Shown: positions 2 through 30,680 of the stretch, piece by piece | How positions within the stretch are numbered: position 1 is the stretch's first letter | Layout of the letters: each line of letters starts with the position of its first letter | Source of the DNA: Sulfurimonadaceae bacterium | GTDB lineage: Bacteria; Campylobacterota; Campylobacteria; Campylobacterales; Sulfurimonadaceae | Assembly (NCBI GenBank): GCA_028683835.1 | Contig: JAQUHB010000001.1 | Location: 65,060-129,059 of the forward strand | Length of the DNA: 64,000 nucleotides | Direction: 5' to 3' | The notes under the pieces: generated by a model | Told to the model about the DNA's origin: nothing | Databases searched by the model: none | Seen by the model: only the letters and a program-made list of their open reading frames with translations | Translations under genes and position numbers: made by a program

Positions 2-3000
2 ATGGACCCTGAACTTCGTGCATTTTATGAATATCAATCAACGGTATTTGAAGCTTGGGATGGTCCAGCTGCATTTTCACTCACAGATGGTCGCTATATC
101 GGTTGTGTACTTGACAGAAATGGACTTCGTCCATCAAAATATATCATAACAAAAGATGACACACTTCTAATCGCGAGTGAGTATGGTGTTATCGATATTG
201 ATGAAGATAATATCAAAGAACGTGGACGTTTAAAATCTGGACAAATGATAGGTCTAGATCTTAAATATGGAAAAGTTTTAAAAGATAAACAGATCAATGA
301 TTATTTGAAAAGTTCAAATCCATATATGAAATGGCTCAATGAGCATATGATATATCTTCAAGAGCATGTAGAAGATCAATATAAAAGCCAATGTGACTTT
401 AATTCAAATGAGCTTATCCAAAGACAAAGATATTTTAACGTAACTCAAGAGATCGTTGAACAAGTTGTTGAACCAATGATTCGTGATGGCAAAGAGGCTG
501 TTGGCTCGATGGGTGATGATACACCACTTGCAGCATTTAGCAATAAACAACGCTCTTTTACAGATTTTTTCAAACAAAAATTTGCGCAGGTAACAAATCC
601 TCCGATCGATCCTATCCGTGAAAAAGTGGTTATGAGTTTAAATACAGGATTTGGTGAAGCTCATAATATTTTAGGAGAGTTGCCATCTCATGCTCATAGA
701 TTGAAAGCAATTTCTCCTGTGATTACTTTTGAAAAATTGGAAGTTTTAAAATCTTTTGGGGATAAAAAATCTCCAAGTTATCAGGACTTTTATAAAAATG
801 CTACGTTTTCAACAGCATTTGATACAGATTTAAAATCAGCACTTGATAATCTCGTAAAAGAAGTTATTGCAAGTGTTAGTAATGATAAAGTTCGTATTAT
901 AATCCTAGATGATGCAGGACTTAATAAAACAAAACGTGTTATACCAATGGCTATGGCAATAGGACGTCTCAATCATGCTCTTTTAGAAAATAAAATAAGA
1001 CACTTAGTCTCTCTCGTTGCCGCGACATCAGAAGTTTTTGATTCACATAGTGCAGCTGTTTTAATAGGATATGGAACAAGTGCTATCTATCCGAATCTAC
1101 TATTTTCAACGGTGGCAAGTGAGCTTACAAAGTCCAAATATAGCGATATTACATGCACTGAAGCTTTAAAATCAGTTCATGGTTCTATTAATGCAGGTAT
1201 TCTTAAAATCATGTCAAAAATGGGTATAGCGACTGTCGCTTCTTACCGAAATACAGGACTTTTTGATATTATAGGTCTAGGACGTGACATCACAAATGAA
1301 TGTTTTCATGGTTCTCATGTACAAATTCCAGGTCTTAGTTATGCAGATATAGATGCAAAGTTGAAAGAAAATCATAAAGCGGCATATAATGAAGATGGGT
1401 TTAATACTATTTTTCCACTCGCAATTGGTGGATATTATAAATTTTACAATGGACAGGAATATCATGATTTTGGTCCAGATGTTATCCATGCAATTCATGC
1501 ATTTGTTAAAACTGGAGATAAAAAAGATTATGAGAAATTTAAATCTACGGTCAATAACCGTGGTTTGAAATTTATTCGTGATTTTTTTGAATTTAAATCT
1601 GATAGAGCAGCTATTGATATTTCTGAAGTTGAATCAAAAGAGAAGATTTTTAAGCGTTTTGCTTCGGCAGCGATGAGTTTAGGTTCAATCAGCCCTGAAG
1701 CACATGAAACGCTTGCAATAGCGATGAACCAGATCGGTGCGCAGTCAAATTCAGGTGAGGGTGGTGAAGATTCTGTACGTTTTGACACAAACCGTAACTC
1801 TAAGATCAAGCAGGTTGCATCTGGCCGTTTTGGTGTAACTCCGGCATACCTTCGTTCAGCTGAAGAGATTCAGATTAAAGTTGCGCAAGGTGCAAAACCT
1901 GGTGAGGGTGGACAACTTCCAGGGCATAAGGTAACTGAGCTTATTGCTCGTCTACGCCATACAATACCAGGTGTTACACTTATCTCACCTCCTCCACACC
2001 ACGATATCTATTCAATAGAGGATTTGGCACAGCTGATCTTTGACCTTAAACAAGTCAATCCAAACGCGCGTATTGCTGTGAAACTTGTTTCTACAGCAGG
2101 TGTTGGAACAATTGCTGCGGGTGTTGCTAAAGCGTACGCTGATAAAATCATTATCTCGGGTGCTGATGGTGGTACTGGTGCGGCTCCACTAACATCAATC
2201 AAATATGCAGGTAGTCCATGGGAACTAGGTCTTAGTGAAGCGCATAATGCACTTAAAGTGAATGATCTTAGACGTCTTGTAGAAGTTCAGACGGATGGCG
2301 GACTTAAAACTGGTCAAGATGTTGTTAAAGCGGCAATGCTCGGTGCTGAGAGTTATGCTTTTGGTACGGCGGTACTTACTATTGTAGGATGTAAAATGCT
2401 TCGTATCTGTCACCTCAATAAATGTTCAGTCGGCATCGCAACACAAAATCAAAAATTGCGTGAAGAGTTCTTTGAAGGACATGTGCATCAAGTGGTTAAC
2501 TATTTTACTCTTTTAGCTGAAGATGTTCGCTCTATCATGGCAAGTCTTGGATATAAAACATTAGAAGAACTTGTCGGCAGAAGCGATCTTTTAAAAGTTG
2601 TCAATGACCCTTTTGCCCAAAAATTTGATTTTTCATCTGTTTTACACAGAGTTGAAGGTATCAATACTCGTCAAGAGCCTTTTAATAAACCTTTTGACGA
2701 TAACGCTTTTGAAAAAGCTATCTTAAAAGATGTTATGCCAGCCATTAAACATCCTGATCATCCTGTTCGTATTACAAGAGAGATCCAAAATATTCATAGA
2801 AGTTTTGGAGCTCTTATCAGTGGTGAAATTGCTCAGTATTATGGAGATGCAGGACTTAAAAAAGATACTATTACCATGGAACTCTCCGGTATCGCAGGTC
2901 AAGCTTTTGGAGCATTTTTGATCAACGGTATCTCAGTATATCTTGATGGTGTTGCAAATGATTATATCGGTAAAGGTCTCCATGGTGGTAAAATAGTTAT

Positions 3001-3499
3001 TACTTCTAAAAATGAAGGAGAAGAGTTTAGTGCCGGTGGAAATACATGTTTATATGGTGCAACAAGCGGCAAACTTTATATCTCTGGAAATGTGGGTGAA
3101 CGTTTTGCGGTTCGTAACTCAGGCGCACTTGCTATTGTAGAGGGTGCAGGAGATAATGCTTGTGAGTATATGACTGGCGGTATTATTGTCATCCTTGGTG
3201 AAACAGGGATCAACTTTGGCGCTGGTATGACAGGCGGTGTGGCATTTGTTTATGATAAAAAACATGATTTTATTGAAAATGTAAATAGCGAACTTGTTGA
3301 AGCTGTGAGAATTGATACAGATGATGGAGACGAAGCAAGACATTATCTTAAACGTCTTTTAAAAGAGTATTTGGTCGAAACAGCGAGTAAAAAAGCGAGA
3401 AAAATATTAGATAATTATAGACAAGATATTAGAGATTTCTGGTTAGTTCGTCCAAAAAATCTTAAAAAATTACCGTTGAACGCTGATAAAGGAGATTAA
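2..3499 (+). CDS. gltB: glutamate synthase large subunit (5' end outside the window)
   Basis: The ORF is open to the window edge. It carries FMN / Fe-S domain motifs (SNSGEGGE, PGEGGQLPG, ISPPPHHDIYSIEDL, LNKCSVGIATQ) and a C-terminal GXGXG beta-helix region (GNVGERFAVRNSGA...GDNACEYMTGG). gltD starts 2 nt after its stop. Confidence 0.96.
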   Translation: MDPELRAFYEYQSTVFEAWDGPAAFSLTDGRYIGCVLDRNGLRPSKYIITKDDTLLIASEYGVIDIDEDNIKERGRLKSGQMIGLDLKYGKVLKDKQINDYLKSSNPYMKWLNEHMIYLQEHVEDQYKSQCDFNSNELIQRQRYFNVTQEIVEQVVEPMIRDGKEAVGSMGDDTPLAAFSNKQRSFTDFFKQKFAQVTNPPIDPIREKVVMSLNTGFGEAHNILGELPSHAHRLKAISPVITFEKLEVLKSFGDKKSPSYQDFYKNATFSTAFDTDLKSALDNLVKEVIASVSNDKVRIIILDDAGLNKTKRVIPMAMAIGRLNHALLENKIRHLVSLVAATSEVFDSHSAAVLIGYGTSAIYPNLLFSTVASELTKSKYSDITCTEALKSVHGSINAGILKIMSKMGIATVASYRNTGLFDIIGLGRDITNECFHGSHVQIPGLSYADIDAKLKENHKAAYNEDGFNTIFPLAIGGYYKFYNGQEYHDFGPDVIHAIHAFVKTGDKKDYEKFKSTVNNRGLKFIRDFFEFKSDRAAIDISEVESKEKIFKRFASAAMSLGSISPEAHETLAIAMNQIGAQSNSGEGGEDSVRFDTNRNSKIKQVASGRFGVTPAYLRSAEEIQIKVAQGAKPGEGGQLPGHKVTELIARLRHTIPGVTLISPPPHHDIYSIEDLAQLIFDLKQVNPNARIAVKLVSTAGVGTIAAGVAKAYADKIIISGADGGTGAAPLTSIKYAGSPWELGLSEAHNALKVNDLRRLVEVQTDGGLKTGQDVVKAAMLGAESYAFGTAVLTIVGCKMLRICHLNKCSVGIATQNQKLREEFFEGHVHQVVNYFTLLAEDVRSIMASLGYKTLEELVGRSDLLKVVNDPFAQKFDFSSVLHRVEGINTRQEPFNKPFDDNAFEKAILKDVMPAIKHPDHPVRITREIQNIHRSFGALISGEIAQYYGDAGLKKDTITMELSGIAGQAFGAFLINGISVYLDGVANDYIGKGLHGGKIVITSKNEGEEFSAGGNTCLYGATSGKLYISGNVGERFAVRNSGALAIVEGAGDNACEYMTGGIIVILGETGINFGAGMTGGVAFVYDKKHDFIENVNSELVEAVRIDTDDGDEARHYLKRLLKEYLVETASKKARKILDNYRQDIRDFWLVRPKNLKKLPLNADKGD

Positions 3500-3500
3500 T

Positions 3501-4886
3501 ATGCAAGAATATTTAAATATAGGACGTACAGACCCTCAAAAACGTTTGGTTGTTGAGCGCGTAAGAGATTTTAAAGAGATTTATGAAGTTTTCGATAAAG
3601 ACCGTGCGGCTTCTCAAAGCGTGCGTTGTATTCAGTGTGGCGATCCATATTGTCTCAATAAATGCCCATTGCACAACTATATTCCGCAGTGGCTTAAAAG
3701 TGTGGCTGAAAAAGATCTTAATTTTGCATTTCGTTTGGCAAATGAACCTTCTCCATTTCCAGAAGTGATGGGAAGAGTTTGTCCGCATGACAGACTTTGT
3801 GAGGGAGACTGTACGTTAAATGACGGACACGGAGCAATTACTATCGGTTCTGTTGAAACTTTTATCGTCGAAGAGGGATTTAAAAATGGTTTAAAACCAC
3901 AATTTCCTGGAATTACAACCGATAAAAAAGTAGCAATTATCGGCTCTGGACCTGCGGGACTTTCATGTGCAACTTATCTTCTTCGTTCAGGTATAGCCGT
4001 TACGATGTATGAAAGAAGTGATAGGGCAGGGGGACTTTTAACGTATGGAATACCTAATTTTAAGCTTGATAAAAAGATTATTGAACGTCGTGTAAAACTT
4101 CTTCAAGAGGCTGGTTTGGAACTTGTATTAAACACTGAAGTCGGACGTGATATCTCTTTTGAAGAGATTGCCGATAAGCATGATGCAATGTTTATAGGTA
4201 TCGGTGCAACGGTCGCTAAAAAAGCAGGAATCGCAGGAGAAAAAGCTCCAAATATTTATAAAGCGATGGATTATTTAACAAATCTTCAGCGTAAAAATTT
4301 CAAGTTAACATATGAGAAAAAATTTGATTTTAAAGATCTTGATGTTGTAGTCGTCGGTGGCGGTGATACTGCGATGGATTGTCTTCGCACTGCAAAACGT
4401 GAAGGTGCAAGAAGTGTTACATGTTTGTATCGTCGTGATGCACATAATATGCCTGGAAGCCAAAAAGAGTATAAAAATGCAATGGAAGAAGGTGTTGATT
4501 TTACATTTTGTGTCTCTCCTAAAGAGATCATTTTAAATGAAGCAGGACGTGCAATTGCAGTAGAAGTTATGAGAACTACTTTAGGTGCCAAAGATGAAAG
4601 TGGACGTCAAAAGATGGAAGAGATTAAAGGAAGTGAATACAGAGTGAGTGCCGATGTCATCATTATGTCCCTTGGTTTTGATCCTGCTACTCCATCATTC
4701 TTAGCAGAAAATGGTATTGAAACTAACTCATGGGGCGGCGTGATTATTAATGAAGAAACGCATGAAACTAAAACAGCAGGTGTCTATGCCGGAGGAGACT
4801 GTTTCCGTGGAGCTGATCTTGTAGTTACTGCTGCATTTGATGGACGTGAAGCTGCTAGAAGTATGGTTAAATCACTTCTAGGTTAG
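3501..4886 (+). CDS. gltD: glutamate synthase small subunit (NADPH)
   Basis: It has an N-terminal Cys cluster (CIQCGDPYCLNKCP...CPHDRLCEGDC) and dinucleotide folds (GSGPAGLSCA, GGGDTAMDC). It is directly coupled to gltB. Confidence 0.95.
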   Translation: MQEYLNIGRTDPQKRLVVERVRDFKEIYEVFDKDRAASQSVRCIQCGDPYCLNKCPLHNYIPQWLKSVAEKDLNFAFRLANEPSPFPEVMGRVCPHDRLCEGDCTLNDGHGAITIGSVETFIVEEGFKNGLKPQFPGITTDKKVAIIGSGPAGLSCATYLLRSGIAVTMYERSDRAGGLLTYGIPNFKLDKKIIERRVKLLQEAGLELVLNTEVGRDISFEEIADKHDAMFIGIGATVAKKAGIAGEKAPNIYKAMDYLTNLQRKNFKLTYEKKFDFKDLDVVVVGGGDTAMDCLRTAKREGARSVTCLYRRDAHNMPGSQKEYKNAMEEGVDFTFCVSPKEIILNEAGRAIAVEVMRTTLGAKDESGRQKMEEIKGSEYRVSADVIIMSLGFDPATPSFLAENGIETNSWGGVIINEETHETKTAGVYAGGDCFRGADLVVTAAFDGREAARSMVKSLLG

Positions 4887-5624
4887 ATGATAGATTTTCA
4901 CTCTTTTATCAAAGATGCCCTTGTGGCATCTCTTGAAATACAAAAAAAACTCCAACAAAATTCCCTTTCTTTATATGAAAAACATACTCTTGGTGCCGGT
5001 GGTGATATAAGTTATGGTGCTGATTTAGTAGCTGAGACAATTTATGTATCATACCTTGGAAAATATGCCAAGATCGATTCTGAAGAGTCCGGTGTGATCG
5101 GTGATGGAAAATACACTATCTATCTTGACCCTCTCGATGGAAGTGAAAACTTTAAAACGAATTTTCCTTATTATGGAGCGTCTATTGCTTTATGTTTACA
5201 AGAAAATACCGTTGTAGCAATTATTGTAAATTTTATCTCATCTGAAGTGTTTGTAAGAACAGAAAATGAGTTTTATAAAACCTATCTAAACGAGCTTGCA
5301 TTGAAGCAAAGTGTGACAGAAAATAGTTCACTCTCTTCTGTTGGAATTGTTGAAAAAGCATACGATAAGCCGCAAAAATTAGCTGTTTTAAAAGAAAATA
5401 AGTTGAAGTTTAGATCACCTGGCGCAGTTGCTCTCTCTTTGGCTTATACGCATTATGTGAATTATATGCTCTTTTTTGGTACAATTCGTGTTTATGATAT
5501 GCAAGCCGGTCTTTATATATGCAAAGATTTACATATATATCAAGATGACGAGATGACCATAATTTCAAAAGACTCTGATCTATTTGACAAATTATGTAAA
5601 TTATACAACAAGGAACACTTTTGA
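4887..5624 (+). CDS. inositol monophosphatase family protein
   Basis: IMPase-type motifs are present (DSEESG and YLDPLDGSENF). It sits upstream of accD, as I recall for C. jejuni. Confidence 0.75.
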   Translation: MIDFHSFIKDALVASLEIQKKLQQNSLSLYEKHTLGAGGDISYGADLVAETIYVSYLGKYAKIDSEESGVIGDGKYTIYLDPLDGSENFKTNFPYYGASIALCLQENTVVAIIVNFISSEVFVRTENEFYKTYLNELALKQSVTENSSLSSVGIVEKAYDKPQKLAVLKENKLKFRSPGAVALSLAYTHYVNYMLFFGTIRVYDMQAGLYICKDLHIYQDDEMTIISKDSDLFDKLCKLYNKEHF

Positions 5625-11125: not shown

Positions 11126-12433
11126 CTACTTCGTAGCAAACTTATAATCTAACATCAACCAAGCAACAGTTTTGTCGTTTGTAAATCCTGTGGCATTTCC
11201 ACCTTTATAAAAGGCACCTTTGATAAGAGCTGTAAGATTGTTGATTTTAGGGATTTTATTGCCATAAGAAACATCAAACTCTGAACCTAAATCTTTCGAT
11301 GTTCCAATATTTTTTTGTGCATCAAATTTATGATAAACAGCCAACACTTTTCCAAATGTTTTCTCAGCATAACCAAGACGTACATTTGCATCATTGAGCC
11401 CCGCATTATTTGTACTTCCTAAAAATACGTCAGCCCATCCATTAAATGCATGCAGTGTAGCAAGTGGAGTCCAAAAACCAATAACAGAACTTCCCTCAGC
11501 TTTCCCAAGTGACTCGTAATTTACACCAGCTAAGAAACTATTGACATTCGCACCTAAATCTAAATTGTAGTATCTTGCATCTGCTTCTGGTTTACCACTG
11601 ATGCCCACTTTAGCACTAGCACCTGATTGTGAACGTCTCTCAAGTGATGGATCCGCTTGTTTTGCATACTCAGCGCGATAGTCAAGTTTGAGTGTACCTG
11701 CATCGATATTGCCAGTTAATGCTGCACCATAAGTATCACTGATAGAAGCTAGCATATAATCATATGCAGTTACATGCAACATGTCGTTTATTTTATAAGT
11801 AGCATGTAACAAAACAGATGAAGTATCATATGCTTCATTCGTGGAAAGACCAGTTGCTGCTGTAGAAAGAAAACTTTGATTTTTAACACCATTGACTCCA
11901 TAAACATACGCACCTAAAAGTGAAAGGTTTTCAATACTATTATCAACTAAAGCAACAGCATCAAAAGTTTGTTTCATCTGTCTCCAGTCTACAGTACCGA
12001 TAAAACGTTGATTATCAAGATTGACATCTTGACGACCTGCACGTACCAGAGTTTTATTGATTTTATAATCTATGTACGCTTGAGTAATACGCGCTTGCTG
12101 TGGATCTGCAACAATATCATATTTTGTATTACCGTCTATGGTTCCATTATAGTTTCTGTCCCCAAAATTACTTACAGCAGAACCTTCTAAAAAAGCAGAA
12201 AGTCCATCAATTTGGAAAAGATCTGCACCTACGCCTAAAGTTGTACGTGCTGTAAAAGCATTAGCAATCTCTTTACCACTGTTTTGTGCATCCACATATT
12301 CATAACGAGGACGAATCTCACCGCTGAACTTTACATTGCTAAGGATATTGATCCCATCATCTGCACTTGCGTTTACATGTATGCTTATCAGTAAACATGG
12401 TACTGCTGCCATAGAAAGTAACATTTTTTTCAT
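11126..12433 (-). CDS. outer-membrane beta-barrel porin (alginate-export-like family)
   Basis: It has a signal peptide (MKKMLLSMAAVPCLLISIHVNASA), alternating beta-strand sequence and a C-terminal aromatic end (MLDYKFATK). The motif RQDVNLDNQRFIGTVDWRQ..QTFDAV is typical of AlgE-like porins. Confidence 0.7.
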   Translation of the reverse strand: MKKMLLSMAAVPCLLISIHVNASADDGINILSNVKFSGEIRPRYEYVDAQNSGKEIANAFTARTTLGVGADLFQIDGLSAFLEGSAVSNFGDRNYNGTIDGNTKYDIVADPQQARITQAYIDYKINKTLVRAGRQDVNLDNQRFIGTVDWRQMKQTFDAVALVDNSIENLSLLGAYVYGVNGVKNQSFLSTAATGLSTNEAYDTSSVLLHATYKINDMLHVTAYDYMLASISDTYGAALTGNIDAGTLKLDYRAEYAKQADPSLERRSQSGASAKVGISGKPEADARYYNLDLGANVNSFLAGVNYESLGKAEGSSVIGFWTPLATLHAFNGWADVFLGSTNNAGLNDANVRLGYAEKTFGKVLAVYHKFDAQKNIGTSKDLGSEFDVSYGNKIPKINNLTALIKGAFYKGGNATGFTNDKTVAWLMLDYKFATK

Positions 12434-12482
12434 TTTTTATTCCTTTTTTCCTTAGTTTTACATAAACTAATTCTATGGGAAA

Positions 12483-12488
12483 AGTATA
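12483..12488 (-). promoter_or_regulatory. -10 candidate TATACT for the porin gene
   Basis: It lies within the 11-mer GATATACTTTT (minus strand, 12490-12480), which is repeated identically upstream of narK. It starts 40 nt from the palindrome centre. Confidence 0.4.
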
Positions 12489-12515
12489 TCTTCTATTGTA
12501 TTGAAGGTAATCAGT

Positions 12516-12540
12516 ATATTGATTAAATTTTAATCAATAT
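12516..12540. promoter_or_regulatory. 25-bp perfect palindrome operator candidate (porin / nasA divergent region)
   Basis: The sequence is ATATTGATTAAA-T-TTTAATCAATAT. The central 23 bp are identical to 29288-29310. Confidence 0.65.
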
Positions 12541-12545: not shown

Positions 12546-12573
12546 TTAATTTTACATTAATGAGTGCTATGAT
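12546..12573 (+). promoter_or_regulatory. nasA promoter candidate: conserved box TTAATTTTACATTAA plus extended -10 TGcTATGAT
   Basis: The 15-nt box (12546-12560) is identical to the one upstream of nirA. The extended -10 lies at 12565-12573, 27 nt before the ATG at 12601. Confidence 0.45.
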
Positions 12574-12600: not shown

Positions 12601-14580
12601 ATGATTAAGTCTGTTTGCGGATATTGCGGTGTCGGATGCGGTTTGGAATATGATGAGAAAAAGTTAATAGGCGATGTTACTTATCCTACGAATTTTGGAA
12701 GTGTCTGTTCTAAAGGTGTTTCAGAACTTGTCAGTATTCAAACCGAGTCAAGATTGCTTCGCCCTGTAATGCGAGAAAATATTGATGAGGAGTTGCTTAC
12801 ATGTAAGTGGGAAGATGCACTCACTCTTATAGCAAACAAGATTCAAAACAGCTCCAAAGAGAAGATAGGATTTTATCTCTCAGGTCAGCTTTTAACTGAG
12901 GATTATTACATCGCAAATAAACTTGGCAAAGGGTTTATCGGCACGGGTAATGTCGATACAAACAGCCGTACATGTATGTCAAGTGCGGTTGTAGCGTACA
13001 AAAAAAGCTTAGGTGCTGATTTTGTTCCGCTTCGTATGGATGATATTTTTAAAGCAAATTTGCTGATATTAGCGGGAGCAAATACTGCTGAGGCACATGT
13101 GGTATTTCATAACCGTATCAAAAAAGCAAAAAAAGAGGGTTTAAAAGTAGTCGTCATAGATCCAAGAGATACTGAAACGGCAAAAATTGCAGATATCTAT
13201 TTGCCCATTAAAGTGGGAGGCGATATCGATTTTTTTAATCTCATCTCAAAACGTCTCATTGATGAAGAGTTGTACGATAAAGAGTTTGTAGAAAATCATA
13301 TCAACAATTTTGAGCTTTTAAAAAATAAGTTCAAACGCGCTCCTGTGACTAAAATGCTCAAACGTACGGGTCTCTCTCAAGAGCAGTTTGATGAGTTTTT
13401 CGAACTCTATAGAAATAGTGCAAATATCATAACAGCATGGACGATGGGACTCAATCAATCGGTTCAAGGTGTAGATAAAAATCTCTCCCTTATAAACACG
13501 CATCTCTTAAGTGGCAAGATCTTTAAAGAGGGAAATGGACCGCTGAGCCTCACAGGTCAGCCAAACGCGATGGGCGGACGCGAGGTCGGAGGACTCTCGA
13601 CTATGCTTGCGGTGCATCTTGGTTTTGATAAAGAGAGTATCAAAAAAGTGAGTAAGTTTTGGAAAAGTGAGAATGTAGCGACAAGTGCAGGGCTCACTGC
13701 CACACAAATGCTCGAGGCCAATCTTGATGTGCTCATTATCTGCCACACAGACCCGATCTATCATCTTCCAAATCGAAACAAAATGGAACAGCTTATCAAG
13801 AAAATCCCTTTTGTCGTAGAGATAAACGCTTATGAAAACTCTGAAACATCCAAGTTCGTACATGTAAGGCTTCCGGCTTCTCCTTGGGGCGAAAAAGAGG
13901 GCACACAGACCAATTTGGATAGAACCATTACAAGACAAGAACGTCTTACTCGTCAGTCCATAGACTCTAAACCCGATTGGGAGATATTTCAGTTGATCGC
14001 TCAAGCTCTTGGATATAAAGAGGGTTTCAATTTTAAAAACCCAAAAGAGATATTCGAGGAGTATCAAGAGATGACAAAGTTAAACGGCTATATGGATATC
14101 CACAAAGCCGATTATGATGAACTTTATAACAATGCTTTCATTTGGGGACAGGAGATAAAAGGGTTTTTAACACCCGATAAAAAAGGGAATCTTTTTTATG
14201 TGGAAAACAAACTATTGAGTGAGAAAATCTCTTTGGAATATCCATTTATTTTACTTACAGGACGCACGCGCGACCAGTGGCACAGTGGAACAAAAACAAA
14301 TTTGCCGGCAACTCTTTTAAAGTTTAAAGAGCTGAATTTTTGTGAGATACATCCAGCTGATGCACAAAAACTTGGTATCAAAGATGGCGATGCGATAAAA
14401 GTGATCTCAAAACGAGGCGAGCTCATCACAAAAGCGCTTTTGACTGAAAATATTAATGAAAAAAATCTCTTTATTCCCATCAGTAACAGAGAAGTGAATT
14501 ATTTGACTTTGGATCTGTATGACAGCGAATCTTTAGAACCCGACTATAATCATAGTGCGGTTAAAATTTTAAAAATCTAA
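12601..14580 (+). CDS. nasA: assimilatory nitrate reductase catalytic subunit (molybdopterin oxidoreductase, NasA/NarB type)
   Basis: It has an N-terminal 4Fe-4S motif (CGYCGVGCG...VCSKG), MopB-family length and a C-terminal molybdopterin dinucleotide-binding domain. I chose the start at 12601 because it has a GAGG Shine-Dalgarno 6 nt upstream, unlike the track start at 12589. Confidence 0.88.
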   Translation: MIKSVCGYCGVGCGLEYDEKKLIGDVTYPTNFGSVCSKGVSELVSIQTESRLLRPVMRENIDEELLTCKWEDALTLIANKIQNSSKEKIGFYLSGQLLTEDYYIANKLGKGFIGTGNVDTNSRTCMSSAVVAYKKSLGADFVPLRMDDIFKANLLILAGANTAEAHVVFHNRIKKAKKEGLKVVVIDPRDTETAKIADIYLPIKVGGDIDFFNLISKRLIDEELYDKEFVENHINNFELLKNKFKRAPVTKMLKRTGLSQEQFDEFFELYRNSANIITAWTMGLNQSVQGVDKNLSLINTHLLSGKIFKEGNGPLSLTGQPNAMGGREVGGLSTMLAVHLGFDKESIKKVSKFWKSENVATSAGLTATQMLEANLDVLIICHTDPIYHLPNRNKMEQLIKKIPFVVEINAYENSETSKFVHVRLPASPWGEKEGTQTNLDRTITRQERLTRQSIDSKPDWEIFQLIAQALGYKEGFNFKNPKEIFEEYQEMTKLNGYMDIHKADYDELYNNAFIWGQEIKGFLTPDKKGNLFYVENKLLSEKISLEYPFILLTGRTRDQWHSGTKTNLPATLLKFKELNFCEIHPADAQKLGIKDGDAIKVISKRGELITKALLTENINEKNLFIPISNREVNYLTLDLYDSESLEPDYNHSAVKILKI

Positions 14581-14649
14581 AGGATAGTAATTTTCCTTTA
14601 AGAGGATTTGCTTTATACTGACTCGCAAATAAATTCAGGAGTCAGAAGT

Positions 14650-15297
14650 ATGAAGCAATATGAAACGTATAAATGTAGTGTTTGTGGAAATGAAGTGGAA
14701 GTACAATATGTGGGTGGCGGAACACTCGTGTGTTGTGGGAAGCATATGGATTGTATCACAGAAAATCTGACAGCTGTAAATCTGATGAAGGCGTTTGCAG
14801 GGGAATCTCAAGCACGAAATAAATATGAATTTTTCGGCGAACTTGCTCGTGAGGCAGGATGGCACGCCATTGCCGAACATTTTGCAGAATCGGCAATGAA
14901 TGAAAAGTATCATGCAAAAGCTGAATATGTGGCTTACAATAAGCTCGTTTACGGCATAGAGATGCATGAGACACTTAAAAATCTTGATATGGCAATTACG
15001 GGTGAAAACTATGAACATACACAGATGTATCCAAATTTTGCTACTATAGCCGAAGAGGAAGGGCATAAAGATATCGCGCGCCTTCTCAAAGCTATTGCAA
15101 AAGTGGAAGCAGAGCATGAACGTGAGTATGCAGAGCTAAAAAAACTTCTTGTAGATGAGGGATTTTTCAACTCAGATGAAGATGAATATTGGGTTTGTGA
15201 AGTGTGTGGACATGTGCATAGGGGCAAAAAACCGCCAAAGGCGTGTCCGCTTTGTAAAGTAGGGCAAGAGTATTTCAAACGTGAACATTTACATTAA
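14650..15297 (+). CDS. rrc: desulforubrerythrin (desulforedoxin + rubrerythrin four-helix bundle + rubredoxin domains)
   Basis: The N-terminal Dx-like motif is YKCSVCGNEVEV...LVCCGKHM. Di-iron ExxH motifs follow (EKYHAKAE, EAEHEREY). The C-terminal rubredoxin motif is CEVCGHVH...CPLCK. An AGGAG sits 8 nt before the ATG at 14650. The architecture matches C. jejuni Rrc as I recall it. Confidence 0.85.
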   Translation: MKQYETYKCSVCGNEVEVQYVGGGTLVCCGKHMDCITENLTAVNLMKAFAGESQARNKYEFFGELAREAGWHAIAEHFAESAMNEKYHAKAEYVAYNKLVYGIEMHETLKNLDMAITGENYEHTQMYPNFATIAEEEGHKDIARLLKAIAKVEAEHEREYAELKKLLVDEGFFNSDEDEYWVCEVCGHVHRGKKPPKACPLCKVGQEYFKREHLH

Positions 15298-15322: not shown

Positions 15323-15838
15323 ATGGCAAAAAGAGGAATATCGATTCTAAAAGGTATCGAAGCACAAACGGTTACTACACTTTTAAATAAAGCTTATGCA
15401 GATGAGTGGTTGGCATATTATCAGTACTTTATTGAATCTAAGGTAGTGAAGGGGATCATGAAAGACGCAGCTATTACAGAACTTACCCAGCATGCAGCAG
15501 ATGAACTTCGTCATGCAACGCTGATAAGTGGACGTATCATACAACTTGGTGGGACACCTTTGTTAAGTCCAAAAGATTGGTTTACGCATACAAACTGTGG
15601 ATATGAGGCTCCAGAGGATGCCGATGTTCTTTCAATTTTAAAACAGTCGATTAAGGGTGAACAGTGTGCTATCAGTATATATAATGGGATCTTAGATATT
15701 ACAAGAGAAAAAGATGTTATTACATATGATATGGTTTCGACTATATTGGCTGATGAGGTTGAACATGAAGAAGATCTGCAAGCACTCTATGATGATATTC
15801 ATGAATTCATAGCTGAGATCAAGAAAAATATTCAGTAA
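15323..15838 (+). CDS. ferritin-like / Dps-like (bacterioferritin-type di-iron) protein
   Basis: It is 171 aa with a four-helix-bundle pattern and E..H ligands (ADELRHAT, DEVEHEEDL). Confidence 0.75.
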   Translation: MAKRGISILKGIEAQTVTTLLNKAYADEWLAYYQYFIESKVVKGIMKDAAITELTQHAADELRHATLISGRIIQLGGTPLLSPKDWFTHTNCGYEAPEDADVLSILKQSIKGEQCAISIYNGILDITREKDVITYDMVSTILADEVEHEEDLQALYDDIHEFIAEIKKNIQ

Positions 15839-17406: not shown

Positions 17407-18213
17407 ATGAAAAATTTACTTTATTTGATCTTATTGTTATTTGTAGCTTCTCTTGAAGCAAAAACGTTGATCTTTGGTGTTGTACCGCAACAAAGTCCCA
17501 TAAAGTTGATCCAAGATTGGCAACCAATAACCAATTATTTGGAAAAAGCAACAGGAGAGCGTATTGAGTTAAAAGTGGAACATTCAATTCCCGAATTTGA
17601 AAAAAAATTGTATAGCGGCGTATATGATATCGCATATATGAATCCATACCATTATGTTATAGCGAGCAAACGTCAGGGATATATAGCCGAAGTACGTGAT
17701 GAAAAAAATCTTATCGGCATTTTAGTTGTTAAAAAGAATAGTGGCTTGAGAGATGTTTCAAAGTTAGGTGCGAAAACTTTTCTTTTTCCTGCCCCAGAAG
17801 CATTTGCTGCGACACTATTGACAAAATATGAACTTCTTAAAAAATATAAAATCGATTTAGAAAAAAATAAAAACTATTTGTATGTAAACTCACATGACTC
17901 TGTATATAAAGGTATCGCACGCGATGTTGGAGATGTGGGAGGAGGGATTGAAAGAACTTTTAATGCACTAGAAGATTCTAAAAGTAAAGATATGTTGATG
18001 ATCTTATATAGAACAAAAGCATATCCCAGCCATCCATTTGCGCTCAATCCCGCACTCTCTAATGCACAAAAAGCAAAAATTACAAAAGCATTGATACAGA
18101 TGCCTCAGTCTTTAGTGTTATCGATCGATATGAAACATCTCATAAAGATCGAAGACTCAGAGTATGATGAAGTGCGGGATATCGCAGTTTCATTCCCTTC
18201 TAAAGAAGAGTAA
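17407..18213 (+). CDS. PhnD-like periplasmic substrate-binding protein (phosphate/phosphonate SBP family)
   Basis: It has a signal peptide and the family signature TLIFGVVPQQSP...YDIAYMNPYHYV. No ABC permease or ATPase gene is adjacent. Confidence 0.75.
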   Translation: MKNLLYLILLLFVASLEAKTLIFGVVPQQSPIKLIQDWQPITNYLEKATGERIELKVEHSIPEFEKKLYSGVYDIAYMNPYHYVIASKRQGYIAEVRDEKNLIGILVVKKNSGLRDVSKLGAKTFLFPAPEAFAATLLTKYELLKKYKIDLEKNKNYLYVNSHDSVYKGIARDVGDVGGGIERTFNALEDSKSKDMLMILYRTKAYPSHPFALNPALSNAQKAKITKALIQMPQSLVLSIDMKHLIKIEDSEYDEVRDIAVSFPSKEE

Positions 18214-18215
18214 AA

Positions 18216-20591
18216 ATGAGGTTACCTTTTCGTTTTCGATTTATACTCTCTTTTGTCACTATTGAGATTATATTTATTTCGCTTATTGTATTTTTTAATT
18301 TCTCTTCTCAGAAAAAACTCTCTCATTCCCTTATAGATGAAAAAATTCAAATAGGAAGTGAACTTTTTAGTCAATTAGTAAAAACTCCAATGGCAACTTC
18401 TGATCTTGCAACATTAGATAATCAAGCTGAAATTTTTACTGGACATAAAAATGTCATTGCAGTGCAAATATATAATCCACAAGATAAAATTCTTTCATAT
18501 GCAAACTCAGATTCCAAACTGAATATCAATGATTTCAATGAAACATCTCATGAAATAACAAAAGGTGAGAGAACATTTATAGTAAGCATTGTTCCAATAA
18601 AAGTTGATGATACTTTTCTTGGATATGCAAAAATTTTATTTGAACTGACTGATATTCATAAAGAGATCGAAAAAAATAAACATGTAACCTTTTTTCTGAT
18701 TCTCCTTGAGATTAGTATCAGTTTACTCATCGCATATATTATTGGTTATAAATTAACAAAAAGTTTGAATAAACTCACTTCATATGCGGCAAGTATAGCG
18801 CAAGAAGAACCAGAACAAAATATAGATTTCTCAAAAGGCGATGAAATAACAGTTCTTTCTCATACCCTGCATCTTATGGAAAAACGTATAGAAGAGCGTA
18901 ATGCAGAACTACAACTTGCGGCAAGTGTCTTTACACATGCACGCGAAGGGATTGTAATCACCGATGCAAATAACAATATAGTCAAAGTCAATCAAACTTT
19001 TACACGTCTCACCGGCTATAAAGCAGAAGAAATCATAGGTAAAAATCCTCGTTTTTTAAAATCTAATAAACAAGATTCGGCATTTTATGTTCAGATGTGG
19101 AGCTCTTTACTTGCAAAGGGATATTGGTACGGAGAAGTTTGGAATCGTCGTAAAAATGGACAAGAATATGCCGAGATGCTGACCATAAGTACAATCTTAG
19201 ATGATGAAGGAAAGGTCAAATATTTTGTAGCTTTACTCTCGGATATCACTCTAGCCAAGAAGCATGAGAGTGAACTTGAACATATCGCTCATTATGATGC
19301 TCTAACAAACATGCCTAACCGTATATTGCTTTCAGACCGTCTTTCGCTGGCATTGGTTCAAAGCCAACGACGTAGTAAATTTTTAGCTGTTGTATTTATT
19401 GATCTAGACGGTTTTAAGGTGGTCAATGATACACATGGACATAAGATCGGAGATATATTACTTATAAAATTAGCAGAGCGCATGCAAAATGCTTTACGTG
19501 AGGGCGATACCTTAGCGCGTTTGGGTGGAGATGAATTTGTTGCTATTTTAGTTGATTTAGAAACTCCTAAAGATTGTGAACCTGTTTTAAAACGCTTGCT
19601 GGCATCTGTATCAGAGCCTGTGGTGATAGAAAAAATAACTCTTTATGTTTCGGCAAGTGTGGGAGTTAGTATTGCACCTCAAGATGCTAATGAGGGTGAT
19701 CAGCTTATACGTCAGGCTGATCAGGCTATGTATCAAGCAAAACAATCTGGAAAAAATCGTTTTCATCTTTTTGATGCTAAAAAAGACAGTGCCATTGTCG
19801 CTTTGAATGAAAATTTGATTCGCATCAAAAAGGCACTGGATAATCATGAATTTGTTCTTTATTATCAACCTAAAATCAATCTTCAAACAAATGAGATTAT
19901 CGGTGTAGAAGCATTGATTCGATGGATAGATCCACAGCGAGGAATAATACCACCATTAAGATTTTTGCCTATTATTGAAAATGATCCTATGAGTATTGAT
20001 ATTGGAGAATGGGTTATTGACACAGCATTAAGTCAGATTGCAATTTGGAAAGAAGCCGGTATTACAATGGCAGTGAGCGTCAATATCGGTGCTCTACAGC
20101 TCCAACAAAAAAACTTTGTAACCCGTCTAAAAGAGCTTTTAAATGCTCATCCTGTAGTAGAACCGCATCTATTGGAACTCGAAATTTTAGAAACTAGTAT
20201 TGTGAGTGATCTTGCTAAAGTGACGAAAGTTATTGATGAATGTGTTGCTCTTGGTGTATTTTGTGCTCTTGATGATTTTGGTACAGGCTACTCTTCTCTA
20301 ACACATATTCGACATCTTCATGTAAATATGATTAAAATAGACCAGACTTTTGTTCGTGATATGCTTGTCGATGGTGATGATTTAGCCATTGTTGAAGGGG
20401 TTATTGGCTTATCCAAAGCTTTTAAACGTGACGTTATCGCAGAGGGTGTTGAAAGTAAAGAACATGGGGAAGCATTGTTAGAACTTGGATGCACATTGGC
20501 TCAAGGCTACGGCATAGCACGTCCGATGCCGGCATCTGAAATGCTACAATGGACAAAAAACTGGAGAGAGGAAAATTTTTGGAAATTATAA
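18216..20591 (+). CDS. membrane sensor HAMP-PAS-GGDEF-EAL protein
   Basis: Two TM helices flank a roughly 140-aa periplasmic region. It also has a PAS domain (GKNPRFLKS), a GGDEF motif (RLGGDEFVAIL) and EAL motifs (EALIRW, DDFGTGYSSL). Confidence 0.9.
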   Translation: MRLPFRFRFILSFVTIEIIFISLIVFFNFSSQKKLSHSLIDEKIQIGSELFSQLVKTPMATSDLATLDNQAEIFTGHKNVIAVQIYNPQDKILSYANSDSKLNINDFNETSHEITKGERTFIVSIVPIKVDDTFLGYAKILFELTDIHKEIEKNKHVTFFLILLEISISLLIAYIIGYKLTKSLNKLTSYAASIAQEEPEQNIDFSKGDEITVLSHTLHLMEKRIEERNAELQLAASVFTHAREGIVITDANNNIVKVNQTFTRLTGYKAEEIIGKNPRFLKSNKQDSAFYVQMWSSLLAKGYWYGEVWNRRKNGQEYAEMLTISTILDDEGKVKYFVALLSDITLAKKHESELEHIAHYDALTNMPNRILLSDRLSLALVQSQRRSKFLAVVFIDLDGFKVVNDTHGHKIGDILLIKLAERMQNALREGDTLARLGGDEFVAILVDLETPKDCEPVLKRLLASVSEPVVIEKITLYVSASVGVSIAPQDANEGDQLIRQADQAMYQAKQSGKNRFHLFDAKKDSAIVALNENLIRIKKALDNHEFVLYYQPKINLQTNEIIGVEALIRWIDPQRGIIPPLRFLPIIENDPMSIDIGEWVIDTALSQIAIWKEAGITMAVSVNIGALQLQQKNFVTRLKELLNAHPVVEPHLLELEILETSIVSDLAKVTKVIDECVALGVFCALDDFGTGYSSLTHIRHLHVNMIKIDQTFVRDMLVDGDDLAIVEGVIGLSKAFKRDVIAEGVESKEHGEALLELGCTLAQGYGIARPMPASEMLQWTKNWREENFWKL

Positions 20592-20666
20592 ACGGCATTT
20601 GCATCTTAGCGATACATGCACAAAGATTTTAAAAATAGACATCTAAAAAACTACAAACAGTTATAT

Positions 20667-21965
20667 CTAGGAATCTTGCATGTAAAAAGATACGCGATTT
20701 CGTCCACTGTTTTTTGCCTGATAGAGCTGTTGATCAGCAAAGTTATAAAGAGCTTCAGATAAGGTTGTTCCCTCCACAATTGCCATACCTATGGATATCG
20801 TTACATAAGGAGAAACACTGTTTTTTTCATGTTCTATATGTAGCTCTTCGATGTTTTTTCGTAATTGTTCAGCTTGTGATAATATACTTTCTAAAGATTC
20901 ATAAGCAAAGACAACACCGAATTCTTCACCGCCTAAACGAAAACAAAAGTCACTACCACGATTGAAGTGTTGTTGTATTGCTTTTGCTACTTTGATTAAT
21001 GTTTCATCTCCGTTTATATGACCATAAGTATCATTATATTGTTTAAAAAAATCAACATCAAGCATCATGAAAACAAGTTTTTTTTCCTCCCTTTTGGCTC
21101 TATTAATTTCGCGAGGAAGAATTTTATTAAAATATCTACGATTATACAAAGAAGTCATCTCATCCGTGATGGCTTGAATTTCCAACTTTTTTTTGTAATT
21201 TTCAAGTTCTGTGATATCTGTAAAAGTAACTACATATCTTGTCTCATCAAATGACTTTGCGCGAACTAAGAATATATGGTTCTGATTTGTTTGAATATTT
21301 TTCATCTTAACTTTTGCGTCGTTATGAGGCGAATCAAGCACATCCTTTATCCATGTATTATGATTATGAATAAAACCTGTTTCTTCAATAAAAAAATCAC
21401 ATATACAATTATGTTGATGTATGAAAGGAATAAACTCTTTATAAGCAAAAAAATCAAGTACATGCTGATTTGCCATAACTAATTTGACACCATCCGAAAG
21501 AATAACAAATCCATCTTGTGCATCTAAAAGTTTTTGAATATAGCTCTCATCCTCCACAGCACCAAAATTGTAAGCCTCGCCCTCATATTCGACATAATGT
21601 GCACGTATAAATACAGGATAAAGCTTGCCATTTGCCCCTTTATGAATACTGTGGAATTCAAGCTTTTGTTTTTGTTTTAAAACTTCAATAAGCGGTATTT
21701 CGTGCTGCTGTTCATTAAAATTGATATCTAAATCGCCAATGCTCATGGTGAGGAGTTGATCTTTTGTGTATCCATACTTATGAATAACCGTATCATTTAC
21801 ATAAACAAAGTGATTATCTTTATCCACTACGAAAATAAGATTATTGATATGATTGATCATGTAGCTGATAAATGTTTGCTCTCGATCTTCATGTTGGAAC
21901 TCAAGAATATCATTGATCTGTTTTGTAAAGGATTTGAGGGCTGATTCATTAAATGTTTTTTGCAT
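20667..21965 (-). CDS. PAS-domain diguanylate cyclase (GGDEF)
   Basis: It has a C-terminal GGDEF domain (RLGGEEFGVVF, NSGRNRV), an N-terminal PAS domain and a His/Cys-rich middle region. Confidence 0.85.
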   Translation of the reverse strand: MQKTFNESALKSFTKQINDILEFQHEDREQTFISYMINHINNLIFVVDKDNHFVYVNDTVIHKYGYTKDQLLTMSIGDLDINFNEQQHEIPLIEVLKQKQKLEFHSIHKGANGKLYPVFIRAHYVEYEGEAYNFGAVEDESYIQKLLDAQDGFVILSDGVKLVMANQHVLDFFAYKEFIPFIHQHNCICDFFIEETGFIHNHNTWIKDVLDSPHNDAKVKMKNIQTNQNHIFLVRAKSFDETRYVVTFTDITELENYKKKLEIQAITDEMTSLYNRRYFNKILPREINRAKREEKKLVFMMLDVDFFKQYNDTYGHINGDETLIKVAKAIQQHFNRGSDFCFRLGGEEFGVVFAYESLESILSQAEQLRKNIEELHIEHEKNSVSPYVTISIGMAIVEGTTLSEALYNFADQQLYQAKNSGRNRVSFYMQDS

Positions 21966-22084
21966 GTCAAACTCTTGATTTTAATTGAGATTTCACCACT
22001 ATTCTATCATACTGTAGCATATAAAGATAAAAAAGTTAAAAATAGATTTTTATTTGTAATTTCGATGTGTGATAAGTTTAAAAG

Positions 22085-22161
22085 TGGTGCCGGCACGAGG
22101 ATTTGAACCCCGGGCCTGCTGATTACAAATCAGCTGCTCTAGCCAACTGAGCTATGCCGGC
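22085..22161 (-). tRNA. tRNA-Thr (anticodon UGU)
   Basis: The reverse complement is GCCGGCATAGCTCAGTTGGCTAGAGCAGCTGATTTGTAATCAGCAGGCCCGGGGTTCAAATCCTCGTGCCGGCACCA. It folds as a cloverleaf with anticodon arm GCTGA-TTTGTAA-TCAGC, a GGTTCAAATCC T-loop and an encoded CCA. Confidence 0.93.
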
Positions 22162-22324
22162 ATTTTTGGCAAGGATGGAATTCTAACCAAGTATTCTTAA
22201 AGTTAGTTTTTTTTACAAACTTTTTGCTAACTTAAGAACTTATCAATTGTCAAAAAAGAGATATGAAAATTTTTCTAGTTACGTTATTATGTGTCAAAAT
22301 AAAGAGTAGAGAAAAGGATAAAGA

Positions 22325-22588
22325 ATGTTAAAAGATCTCATCTACGCAGGCATAGGCGCTGCGAGTATTTTAAAAGAAAAAGTGGAAGCGGAAGTCAAAA
22401 AGCTTGAAGATGAAGGGAAACTCAAAACAACTGATGCAAAAAGTTTTTTAGAGTCCATTGAACAAAAGGGCAAGGAAGAGGATGATAAGTTTAAAGAAAA
22501 ACTCAAATCAACTCTTAAAGAGATCATCGATGAACTAGGTCTTGCTACAAAAGCGGATTTGGAAAAACTGAGAGAGGATCTCAAATAA
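22325..22588 (+). CDS. phasin-like small coiled-coil protein
   Basis: It is 87 aa, starts MLKDLIYAGIGAASILKEK and is highly charged and helical. It lies immediately upstream of the ABC1/UbiB kinase gene. Confidence 0.6.
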   Translation: MLKDLIYAGIGAASILKEKVEAEVKKLEDEGKLKTTDAKSFLESIEQKGKEEDDKFKEKLKSTLKEIIDELGLATKADLEKLREDLK

Positions 22589-22641
22589 AAACTTTTTTCT
22601 TCTATTCGCCAAGGCGGATTTACGCTGTCTTTACTTTTTTA

Positions 22642-24129: not shown

Positions 24130-24142
24130 GTATAATCTAAGT

Positions 24143-29253: not shown

Positions 29254-29282
29254 ATTTTAACATTCATTTAATGTAAAATTAA
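29254..29282 (-). promoter_or_regulatory. nirA promoter candidate: conserved box TTAATTTTACATTAA plus extended -10 TGtTAAAAT
   Basis: On the minus strand the box lies at 29282-29268 and the extended -10 at 29262-29254. The spacing to the palindrome and to the ATG matches the nasA copy. Confidence 0.45.
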
Positions 29283-29286: not shown

Positions 29287-29311
29287 TTATTGATTAAATT
29301 TTAATCAATAA
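29287..29311. promoter_or_regulatory. 25-bp perfect palindrome operator candidate (nirA / narK divergent region)
   Basis: The sequence is TTATTGATTAAA-T-TTTAATCAATAA. The central 23 bp are identical to 12517-12539. Confidence 0.65.
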
Positions 29312-29339
29312 GATGGTTATTTAAAGGAATGTTTCCTGA

Positions 29340-29345: not shown

Positions 29346-29393
29346 TTTGATGTTCGAAAGTTTTTAATGAAAAATTAAGTTAAGGAGAATCAC

Positions 29394-30674: not shown

Positions 30675-30680
30675 GGAGAA

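Follow-up and report, generated by a model that had tools for sequence, protein, structure and literature searches.

A palindromic box between divergent nitrate-assimilation genes of a Sulfurimonadaceae bacterium as the probable operator of a general nitrogen regulon in Campylobacterota

A 64,000-nucleotide stretch of DNA from a Sulfurimonadaceae bacterium (GenBank assembly GCA_028683835.1, contig JAQUHB010000001.1, positions 65,060 to 129,059 of the forward strand; hereafter the window) carries the same odd-centred palindrome twice, once between the divergent genes for a porin and the nitrate reductase NasA and once between those for the nitrite reductase NirA and the transporter NarK. Here, we asked what this element is, which genes it serves and which protein might bind it. 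Our analysis leads to the conclusion that the palindrome, termed the N-box or simply the box in the following, is very probably the operator of a global nitrogen-assimilation regulon kept across the Campylobacterota, bound by a dimeric factor at a 17-bp core and most likely activating both flanking promoters. The two copies are the following:

12516 to 12540, no strand assigned: N-box copy 1, a perfect 12-1-12 dyad centred on 12528, with the 17-bp core TGATTAAATTTTAATCA at 12520 to 12536
29287 to 29311, no strand assigned: N-box copy 2, a perfect 12-1-12 dyad centred on 29299, with the 17-bp core at 29291 to 29307

A preliminary description made from the letters of this DNA had reported two perfect 12-1-12 dyads with an identical 23-bp centre, and direct reading together with shuffled sequences bore this out. 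Copy 1 reads ATATTGATTAAATTTTAATCAATAT and copy 2 reads TTATTGATTAAATTTTAATCAATAA. The common 23-mer TATTGATTAAATTTTAATCAATA is found exactly at 12517-12539 and 29288-29310, each time within the dyad, and even when up to three mismatches were permitted these remained the only two matches in the window. Shuffled windows contained 0.01 matches on average and none of 100 shuffles had two copies. The two dyads are also the longest odd-centred perfect palindromes of the 64 kb, the next one having an arm of 9. A palindrome of this kind might not be a protein-binding site at all but a chance product of AT-rich DNA, a dispersed repeat or remnant of a miniature inverted-repeat transposable element, a cruciform or a hairpin terminator. 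The low G+C content of the intergenic DNA (21%) is in line with such an origin, as is the folding of the dyad as single-stranded DNA at -6.6 to -6.9 kcal/mol (z approximately -4.5). The shuffling result and the restriction to two copies in 64 kb speak against it. An intrinsic terminator was rejected since the scanner found no terminator-like site, each arm of the stem contains a single G-C pair and the genes on both sides point away from the dyad.

Phylogenetic footprinting was carried out with 80 nirA loci from a metagenome scan (NirA proteins 61-94% identical). The closest matches to the NirA of the window were proteins from metagenome-assembled genomes (MAGs) with 94% identity, followed by those of named Sulfurimonas with 70-81%, and the DNA was assigned to a Sulfurimonas; the nearest relative is MAG MJ4_bin-227 (loci L083 and L152; 92-97% amino-acid identity). 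With neither of its two possible start codons was the NirA of the window present in an index of exact protein sequences. An iterated weight matrix was built from the 58 non-redundant loci in which nirA has an upstream region of its own. All 58 carried a 17-bp box, TGnnTAAAWnnTAAnCA, upstream of nirA (18.6 bits), with TG, TAAA, TAA and CA invariant or nearly so, and in nearly all of them the box lies 79-92 bp from the nirA ATG. A single position relative to the gene start has thus been kept among NirA proteins that are just 62-94% identical, which also argues against a site without a protein. The matrix scored both window sites at 19.6-21.4 bits. Four strand-hits of at least 18 bits were observed in the window, namely the two sites, versus 0.07 in shuffled windows. 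A third match at 61454-61474 (12.9 bits), in front of the gene for 3-deoxy-D-arabino-heptulosonate 7-phosphate (DAHP) synthase, was set aside as within chance, 1.5 hits of at least 12 bits being expected. Across the nirA loci, hits of at least 12 bits were almost exclusively intergenic, and those of at least 14 bits in the relatives almost all adjoined nitrogen genes at fixed spacing. The genes behind them were nirA, narK (in narK-nirA operons), nasA, cysG for sirohaem synthase, amtB-glnK and genes for a formate/nitrite-family transporter and an NrtA-like binding protein. One 20-bit hit inside an AMMECR1-like coding sequence (L081) was judged a chance match. In every related locus examined, the site is kept upstream of the orthologous nirA, narK and nasA genes, as the preliminary description had anticipated for a functional element. 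Taken together, the palindrome is predicted to be a real regulator-binding site.

The alignment also tells which part of the palindrome matters. In most species the box is pseudo-symmetric, in that one side has an invariant run of A whose mirror positions on the other side are variable, and the dyad of the window lineage is an exceptionally perfect version of it. The perfect symmetry accompanies use by two divergent promoters. One bound dimer serving both promoters would explain why the box is perfect here and in L083, L119 and L152 and lopsided where nirA alone is served. The outermost base pair, which differs between the two copies with symmetry preserved, had been put forward as evidence of selection; this found no support, as positions outside the central 17-19 bp carry at most 0.3 bits in the 58 related sites. 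The closest relatives are asymmetric in the flanks, as in ...AATCAACT of L001, L025 and L083. Hence the proposed 25-bp site stands as an operator of the dimer type, but the recognised core measures 17-21 bp and not 25.

The content of the regulon was approached by an exact scan of 185,579 species genomes with the 19-bp core TTGATTAAANTTTAATCAA, which yielded at least 120 loci. Thirty-two of the matches listed belong to Campylobacterota, three of them (L103, L184 and L197) assigned via GlnA/Amt identity of 67-93%, and they span Sulfurimonas, Sulfuricurvum, Sulfurovum, Nautiliaceae, Campylobacteraceae and Helicobacteraceae MAGs. In all 32 the palindrome is intergenic, and in 24 it lies beside amtB/glnK, glnA, nirA/narK/nasA or cysG. 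By neighbouring gene, these 32 loci among the matches listed are distributed as follows:

amtB, glnK or a second Amt paralogue: 15 loci
glnA: 5 loci
nirA, narK or nasA: 3 loci
cysG with a gene for a PP2C-kinase protein: 1 locus
NMT1/NrtA-type ATP-binding cassette (ABC) transporter binding proteins: 2 loci
secreted amine oxidase: 1 locus
porin genes: 4 loci
other: 1 locus

Porin genes also stand behind boxes in L152, L157, L162, L167, L175 and L190. The preliminary description had predicted further sites at other nitrogen-assimilation genes, and the identical palindrome does occur before amtB-glnK and glnA in relatives. Its concern that the sequence might be a dispersed repeat was dispelled, the matches being nearly confined to intergenic DNA by nitrogen genes. 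What stood of its overall reading is an operator for a dimeric protein that is shared by nitrate-assimilation promoters; what did not is the restriction to nitrate, because the regulon is one of general nitrogen assimilation and extends across the phylum.

The same 19-mer also turned up in unrelated phyla, a finding that would suit a site without a protein. These matches look like operators too, however, since 88 of the 88 listed outside the Campylobacterota are intergenic; one of the 88 has a nitrogen gene within 2.5 kb. As far as computation allows, the reading of the palindrome as a non-protein site is refuted by conservation and genomic association, and we assign it next to no probability. 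In about 19 loci of Bacteroidales MAGs (L085, L087, L088, L094, L096, L109, L130, L137, L143, L144, L154, L158 and others) TTGATTAAANTTTAATCAA lies between divergent genes for a LexA-like protein (HTH_3 and peptidase S24 domains) and a Y-family polymerase (ImpB/UmuC) and looks like an SOS-type operator that coincides in sequence. Genes, phylum and presumably protein are different, and the identity is a convergence on one sequence; the sequence alone does not identify the regulator. In five alphaproteobacterial genomes (L100, L160, L170, L195 and L198; four SAR116 and one unclassified alphaproteobacterial MAG) it stands upstream of a gene for an ABC-transporter permease.

We then considered how the box is placed with respect to the genes that it would control. 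The gene context given before, porin(-)/nasA(+) and nirA(-)/narK(+), holds, with the start of nirA moved to the ATG at 29227 behind a GGAGAAG ribosome-binding site. The target genes in the window are:

11126 to 12433, minus strand: gene for an outer-membrane porin (Opr/Alginate_exp-like), divergent from nasA
12601 to 14580, plus strand: gene for a NasA-like assimilatory nitrate reductase (molybdopterin oxidoreductase)
27314 to 29227, minus strand: gene for the ferredoxin-nitrite reductase NirA, divergent from narK
29394 to 32318, plus strand: genes for the nitrate/nitrite transporter NarK (29394-30674) and a fusion of PP2C phosphatase and Ser-Thr kinase (30681-32318)

The two intergenic regions are 167 bp (porin/nasA) and 166 bp (nirA/narK) long, and when the second was reverse-complemented and set against the first, three common blocks in mirror-image layout emerged: the palindrome, a 15-mer TTAATTTTACATTAA located 5-6 nucleotides further towards nasA/nirA, and AAAAGTATATC on the porin/narK side, which is GATATACT when read towards the porin and narK genes. 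Each dyad lies exactly midway between two -10-like elements on opposite strands, an arrangement seen twice:

12565 to 12573, plus strand: predicted extended -10 of nasA, TGcTATGAT, hexamer start 40 bp from the dyad centre
12483 to 12490, minus strand: predicted -10 of the porin gene, GATATACT, hexamer start 40 bp from the dyad centre
29254 to 29262, minus strand: predicted extended -10 of nirA, TGtTAAAAT, hexamer start 40 bp from the dyad centre
29338 to 29345, plus strand: predicted -10 of narK, GATATACT, hexamer start 41 bp from the dyad centre

The hexamers read TATGAT (nasA), TATACT (porin), TAAAAT (nirA) and TATACT (narK), with the TG of an extended -10 preceding those of nasA and nirA. 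No -35 element was found at the usual distance at any of the four window promoters, and sigma-54 elements (GG-N10-GC, -24/-12) were absent from both strands of both intergenic regions. The spacing is not peculiar to the window. In 52 of the 58 nirA loci a hexamer that agrees with TATAAT at five or more of its six positions begins at a distance of 39 or 40 bp from the centre of the box, and the promoters of amtB, amt2, glnA, porin and binding-protein genes from six families keep to the same spacing. At box-bearing promoters GATATACT, GCTATAAT, GATAAAAT or a similar sequence follows about 29 nucleotides past the 21-mer. With its centre 40-41 bp from the hexamers of both divergent genes, the box would therefore be located at about -52 of four promoters without -35. 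This points to a single dimeric activator for each gene pair. According to this scheme, a dimeric transcription factor would bind the TGnnTAAAWnnTAAnCA core, a single dimer on the symmetric box midway between divergent promoters could serve both (porin/nasA; nirA/narK), and the factor at about -52 would activate the core promoters lacking -35 when fixed nitrogen is scarce.

The same arrangement was weighed with regard to repression, in which a dimer present under nitrogen excess would silence both divergent promoters and expression would become constitutive once it is released. Perfect dyads are typical of repressor operators. In addition, the gene for the candidate regulator (see below) has a box just 24-54 bp upstream of its start codon and thus probably over its core promoter, so that the same protein can probably repress. 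In more than 70 promoters of target genes, about 30 bp separate the end of the box from the -10 downstream of it and the two never overlap, and the absence of a recognisable -35 is the usual mark of activator dependence. We therefore consider a repressor operator unlikely and favour activation.

How does the box relate to the sites of known regulators? The FNR consensus is TTGAT-N4-ATCAA, that of NtcA GTA-N8-TAC and that of NssR TTAAC-N4-GTTAA. In the box the TTGAT/ATCAA pentamers are 9 bases apart and not 4, as noted before, which excludes CRP/FNR geometry; the even-centred spacing of NtcA and NssR sites is equally absent from the 58 related sites, where the box is odd-centred (TG-N13-CA). 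Activator sites of the CRP/FNR family are centred at -41.5 in class II promoters and at -61.5 or -71.5 in class I promoters; judged from the predicted -10 hexamers, 40-41 bp away, the box centre would be at about -52. Cyanobacterial NtcA is a global nitrogen activator that acts upstream of nirA, nrtP/narK, amt and glnA at promoters lacking -35, and cyanobacterial nirA operons possess a second, pathway-specific regulator, NtcB. Two-layer control at nirA by NtcA and NtcB may be analogous to the box and the second element described below. The NtcA sites, however, are even-centred, span 14-16 bp and lie at -41.5, whereas the box is odd-centred, comprises 17 bp and would lie at about -52.

Sites of NtrC are 17-bp dyads of the type TGCACC-N5-GGTGCA and thus have TG-N13-CA geometry. 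Length and outer TG/CA are common to these sites and the box, but the inner bases of the box are A/T and do not conform to the NtrC consensus. The box is accompanied by TATAAT-like hexamers instead of a -24/-12 promoter, and it is promoter-proximal at a fixed 40 bp, unlike the remote enhancers of NtrC. The core regulon of NtrC consists of glnA, amtB and glnBK, to which some lineages have added nas, nir and narK, and an analysis of 33 proteobacterial regulators that had NtrC among its transcription factors excluded epsilonproteobacterial genomes for want of orthologues of the target factors (Leyn et al., PMC5343134).

Similar in its workings is the TnrA/GlnR box of Firmicutes, whose regulators belong to the MerR family. 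Activation sites of TnrA are centred at about -49 to -51, close to the -52 deduced for the box. In Bacillus, the TnrA/GlnR box (TGTNANAWWWTNTNACA) comprises 17 bp in the form of an interrupted inverted repeat, and some TnrA sites of B. subtilis govern two divergent promoters (PMC4475385). The N-box likewise is an interrupted inverted repeat of 17 bp with TG...CA ends and an A/T-rich centre, and the regulons overlap, with nasA, nasBC, nasDEF, amtB-glnK and glnA on the TnrA/GlnR side. TnrA requires T3, A5, T13 and A15, whereas the N-box has T5 A6 A7 A8 and T12 A13 A14. Of the 58 sites, 51 have T at position 5, 55 have A at position 13 and just 29 have T at position 3, and the consensus TGTNA...TNACA is accordingly absent. 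No gene of the MerR type was seen in the box-bearing loci. The likeness is thus one of workings and not of membership.

Two further types of site were rejected. The Fur consensus is a 7-1-7 or 19-bp sequence, GATAATGATAATCATTATC, and the Fur-family regulon consists of iron, zinc or peroxide genes; the half-site of the box is TGATTAAA and not TGATAAT, and 24 of the 32 Campylobacterota loci listed flank amt, glnK, glnA, nir, nas, narK or cysG. The consensus of NsrR/Rrf2 is AAGATGCATTT-N-AAATGCATCTT (11-1-11) and its regulon comprises genes for detoxification of nitric oxide (NO). The inner polarity of the N-box is opposite (AAA-N-TTT versus TTT-N-AAA), and none of the flanking genes identified was of the hmp/hcp type. 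In sum, the box works like the operators of global nitrogen regulators yet belongs to none of the known ones.

The 15-mer shared by the two intergenic regions bears on a narrower explanation, namely that the box is a pathway-specific operator for nitrate/nitrite or NO (NsrR/Rrf2-like, NssR-like or NtcB-like). In the window the exact 15-mer is located between box and -10 on the nasA and nirA sides, and weaker copies occur in the predicted leaders of the other two genes:

12546 to 12560, plus strand: 15-mer TTAATTTTACATTAA, between box and nasA -10, centre 25 bp from the dyad centre
29268 to 29282, minus strand: 15-mer TTAATTTTACATTAA, between box and nirA -10, centre 24 bp from the dyad centre
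12452 to 12466, plus strand: weaker 15-mer copy with two mismatches, in the predicted porin leader
29364 to 29378, minus strand: weaker 15-mer copy with one mismatch, in the predicted narK leader

With up to two mismatches, five matches were found in the window versus 1.3 expected. The 15-mer itself has the form TTAAT-N5-ATTAA. Exact copies stand beside boxes in L001, L005, L006, L025, L049, L064, L083 and L152, and distant lineages have it at the boxes of nitrate/nitrite genes (L005/L006, with L005 1280-1294; L049, 58-72; L064, 3895-3909). The nirA promoters of most lineages contain a half-box, TG(C/A)(C/T)TAAAAAnTAG, between box and -10, 33 bp downstream of the box start, and the window lineage carries the 15-mer where these carry the half-box. 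Neither was detected at amtB and glnA promoters of box-bearing loci. Judged from this distribution, the 15-mer or half-box may be a nitrate/nitrite-specific element added to the general box. Within the window the box is confined to nas, nir and nar genes, and NsrR sites are odd-centred 11-1-11 dyads, both of which would suit a pathway-specific operator. The identical sequence, however, precedes amtB-glnK or glnA in 20 of the 32 Campylobacterota loci among the matches listed, genes that are specific for neither nitrate nor NO, and there is no match to the NsrR, NssR or NarL consensus. With the 15-mer or half-box, restricted to nirA/nasA promoters, as the better candidate for such control, a pathway-specific role of the box itself appears highly improbable.

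Which protein binds the box? The preliminary description had noted that no conventional transcription factor gene is adjacent, and indeed the 10 kb or so around each copy contained no gene for a DNA-binding regulator. A LytTR two-component pair (40652-42332) and a Fur-family protein (59381-59848) are the nearest regulators encoded in the window. Clustering of the neighbours of the 80 nirA loci returned just pyrH, rpoZ, spoT, tyrS, nasA, narK, the PP2C-kinase fusion and cysG, and no consistent regulator. Genes for OmpR-type response regulators upstream of nirA (L071, L072 and L074) were discarded since they are lineage-specific and their products would bind direct repeats, and a PhoU gene upstream of glnA (L089, L140 and L103) reflects pstCAB-phoU synteny.

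The best candidate for the regulator, which we propose tentatively and at less than even odds, is a stand-alone NtrC/NtrX-like protein of 244 residues with a C-terminal Fis-type helix-turn-helix (HTH_8, 3.7e-7) that was found in the amtB loci of three families (L106, L110 and L148). Its gene lies beside amtB-glnK in Campylobacteraceae, Sulfurovum and Nautiliaceae. The order of the Sulfurovum type is narK, a nirA-nasA fusion, a DUF234 gene, the regulator, a protein of about 233 residues, amtB, glnK, amt2 and glnK, and in the other contexts regulator, protein of about 233 residues, amtB and glnK. The fusion of the Sulfurovum-type loci L201-L204 (approximately 1100-5020) encodes one protein of about 1306 residues in which NirA, with its two NIR_SIR repeats, is joined to a molybdopterin nitrate reductase of the NasA type. 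A box lies at the distance given above upstream of the candidate's own ATG in four of the five different contexts, among them Sulfurovum, Arcobacter and Nautiliaceae. The family is small, with 146 clusters at 50% identity in a set of 1.84 billion representatives, and its named members come from Sulfurovum, Sulfurovaceae, Arcobacter, Nitratifractor, Campylobacteraceae and Hydrogenimonas.

Profile matches of the candidate in the PDB were Fis, ZraR, NtrC and FleQ. An AlphaFold model (mean predicted local distance difference test score, pLDDT, 92.9) gave NtrX as the best Foldseek match, followed by ZraR, FleQ, PspF and NtrC1, with probability 1.00 and template modelling (TM) scores of 0.52-0.58. 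The modelled fold is that of an enhancer-binding protein, a compact AAA+ domain with a Fis-type helix-turn-helix, and according to the model it is shared with those NtrC/NtrX proteins of Rhodobacter, Caulobacter and Brucella that have no GAFTGA. A GAFTGA-like motif was absent from all 288 members of the candidate's family. NtrC proteins lacking it act at sigma-70 promoters in Rhodobacter and Caulobacter, as does VpsR in Vibrio (bioRxiv 10.1101/2023.06.06.543975). With a median length of 244 residues and a Walker A region starting near residue 32, the family members have no room for an N-terminal receiver domain. Instead of an NtrB kinase, as in the case of NtrC, the partner is a PAS-like protein: the candidate gene is always followed by an overlapping gene for a protein of 231-238 residues whose only match is a weak one to PAS at the N-terminus (L106 2016-2717, L110 6449-7141, L201 6716-7417, L205 7713-8408, L211 970-1686 and L208 7719-8420). 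A PAS protein paired with a descendant of the enhancer-binding proteins, with glnK beside them, recalls NifL-NifA. A paralogous subfamily of 255-266 residues (L207 7001-7798, with an intact GENGTGKE Walker A, and L212 9001-9768) is encoded between slyD (FKBP) and fabD in an atp-tol-pal cluster; having neither box nor linkage to nitrogen genes, it was treated as a paralogue and not as the box regulator.

If the candidate is correct, a phylum-wide nitrogen regulon would be run by a receiver-less, GAFTGA-less NtrC/NtrX-like protein of 244 residues at about -52 of sigma-70 promoters. One dyad would be able to drive two divergent promoters, the PAS-like partner, possibly with GlnK, would exert control in the manner of NifL-NifA, and the 15-mer or half-box would add nitrate/nitrite specificity at nirA/nasA. 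We regard this complete scheme as possible but doubtful. The alternative is that the box belongs to a regulator of another family (MerR-type and TnrA/GlnR-like, Lrp/AsnC-like, LysR-type or Fur-family) and that the amtB-linked protein acts elsewhere. It is backed by the length and position that the box has in common with TnrA sites and by the Fur-family gene in the window, Fur boxes being AT-rich and odd-centred, as well as by the distribution of the candidate family considered below. Among about 110 Campylobacterota loci, none of those with a box has a linked gene for such a regulator; the inner bases that define the TnrA consensus are different in the box, and the regulon is unrelated to iron or peroxide. 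A regulator from one of these families has, in our estimation, not quite an even chance.

Several points weigh against our proposals. With respect to the candidate, the context in L208/L209 has no box. Sulfurimonas and Sulfuricurvum account for none of the 240 organism-named homologues listed, though both genera have the box, and no NtrC/NtrX-like member was seen for them. Likewise, no homologue is present in the window, nor within 8 kb of amtB or glnA in the Sulfurimonadaceae loci. With respect to the box, the counts of the species-genome scan come from a sample of the matches, and a site spanning -62 to -42 could repress by looping or by blocking an UP element. The predicted -10 assignments follow from conservation; a generic sigma-70 scanner, which requires a -35, left the conserved hexamers uncalled because these promoters have none.

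The surroundings of the two boxes contain further genes. Downstream of nasA, genes for a rubrerythrin with a desulfoferrodoxin N-terminal domain (14608-15297) and a Dps/ferritin protein (15323-15838) follow in the same direction with gaps of 27 and 25 nucleotides, an order that is identical in the closest relative (L152). These genes for peroxide and iron protection may be co-transcribed with the nitrate reductase gene from the N-box promoter. The PP2C-phosphatase/Ser-Thr-kinase fusion stands behind narK in many lineages (15 nirA loci), and in L182 its gene (545-2176) has a perfect box of its own; its location suggests a post-translational control linked to nitrate transport. The window starts (2-4886) inside gltB for the large subunit of glutamate synthase, recognised by tblastn likeness to a gene of L207 and followed by gltD; the gltB promoter is beyond the window. 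Between the two nitrogen loci (17407-26414) lies a dense set of cyclic-di-GMP genes, encoding GGDEF-EAL (18216-20591) and GGDEF proteins (20667-21965 and 24080-25387), with further GGDEF genes farther off (49534-51453 and 60467-61393). A PhnD-like binding protein and an ABC1 kinase are also encoded within this interval.

In sulfidic and hydrothermal habitats, Sulfurimonas, Sulfurovum, Sulfuricurvum and related bacteria are dominant, and it is there that they link the oxidation of sulfur to the fixation of carbon. Nitrogen sensing and regulation in these Campylobacterota is essentially undescribed, and in the full-text literature, the coverage of which was incomplete, we found no description of such a motif or of a nitrogen regulator in this phylum. 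The box is an incremental yet real addition to the bacterial nitrogen-control systems and does not involve a new principle. The gain lies in an operator that is now defined, together with a weight matrix ready for use and a promoter geometry of fixed spacing, by which the nitrogen regulon becomes readable from any genome or metagenome of the phylum, including less obvious members such as porins, the PP2C/kinase fusion by narK, the amine oxidase and possibly rubrerythrin and Dps. The question of what replaces NtrC, NtcA or TnrA in this group can now be addressed via a concrete candidate protein.

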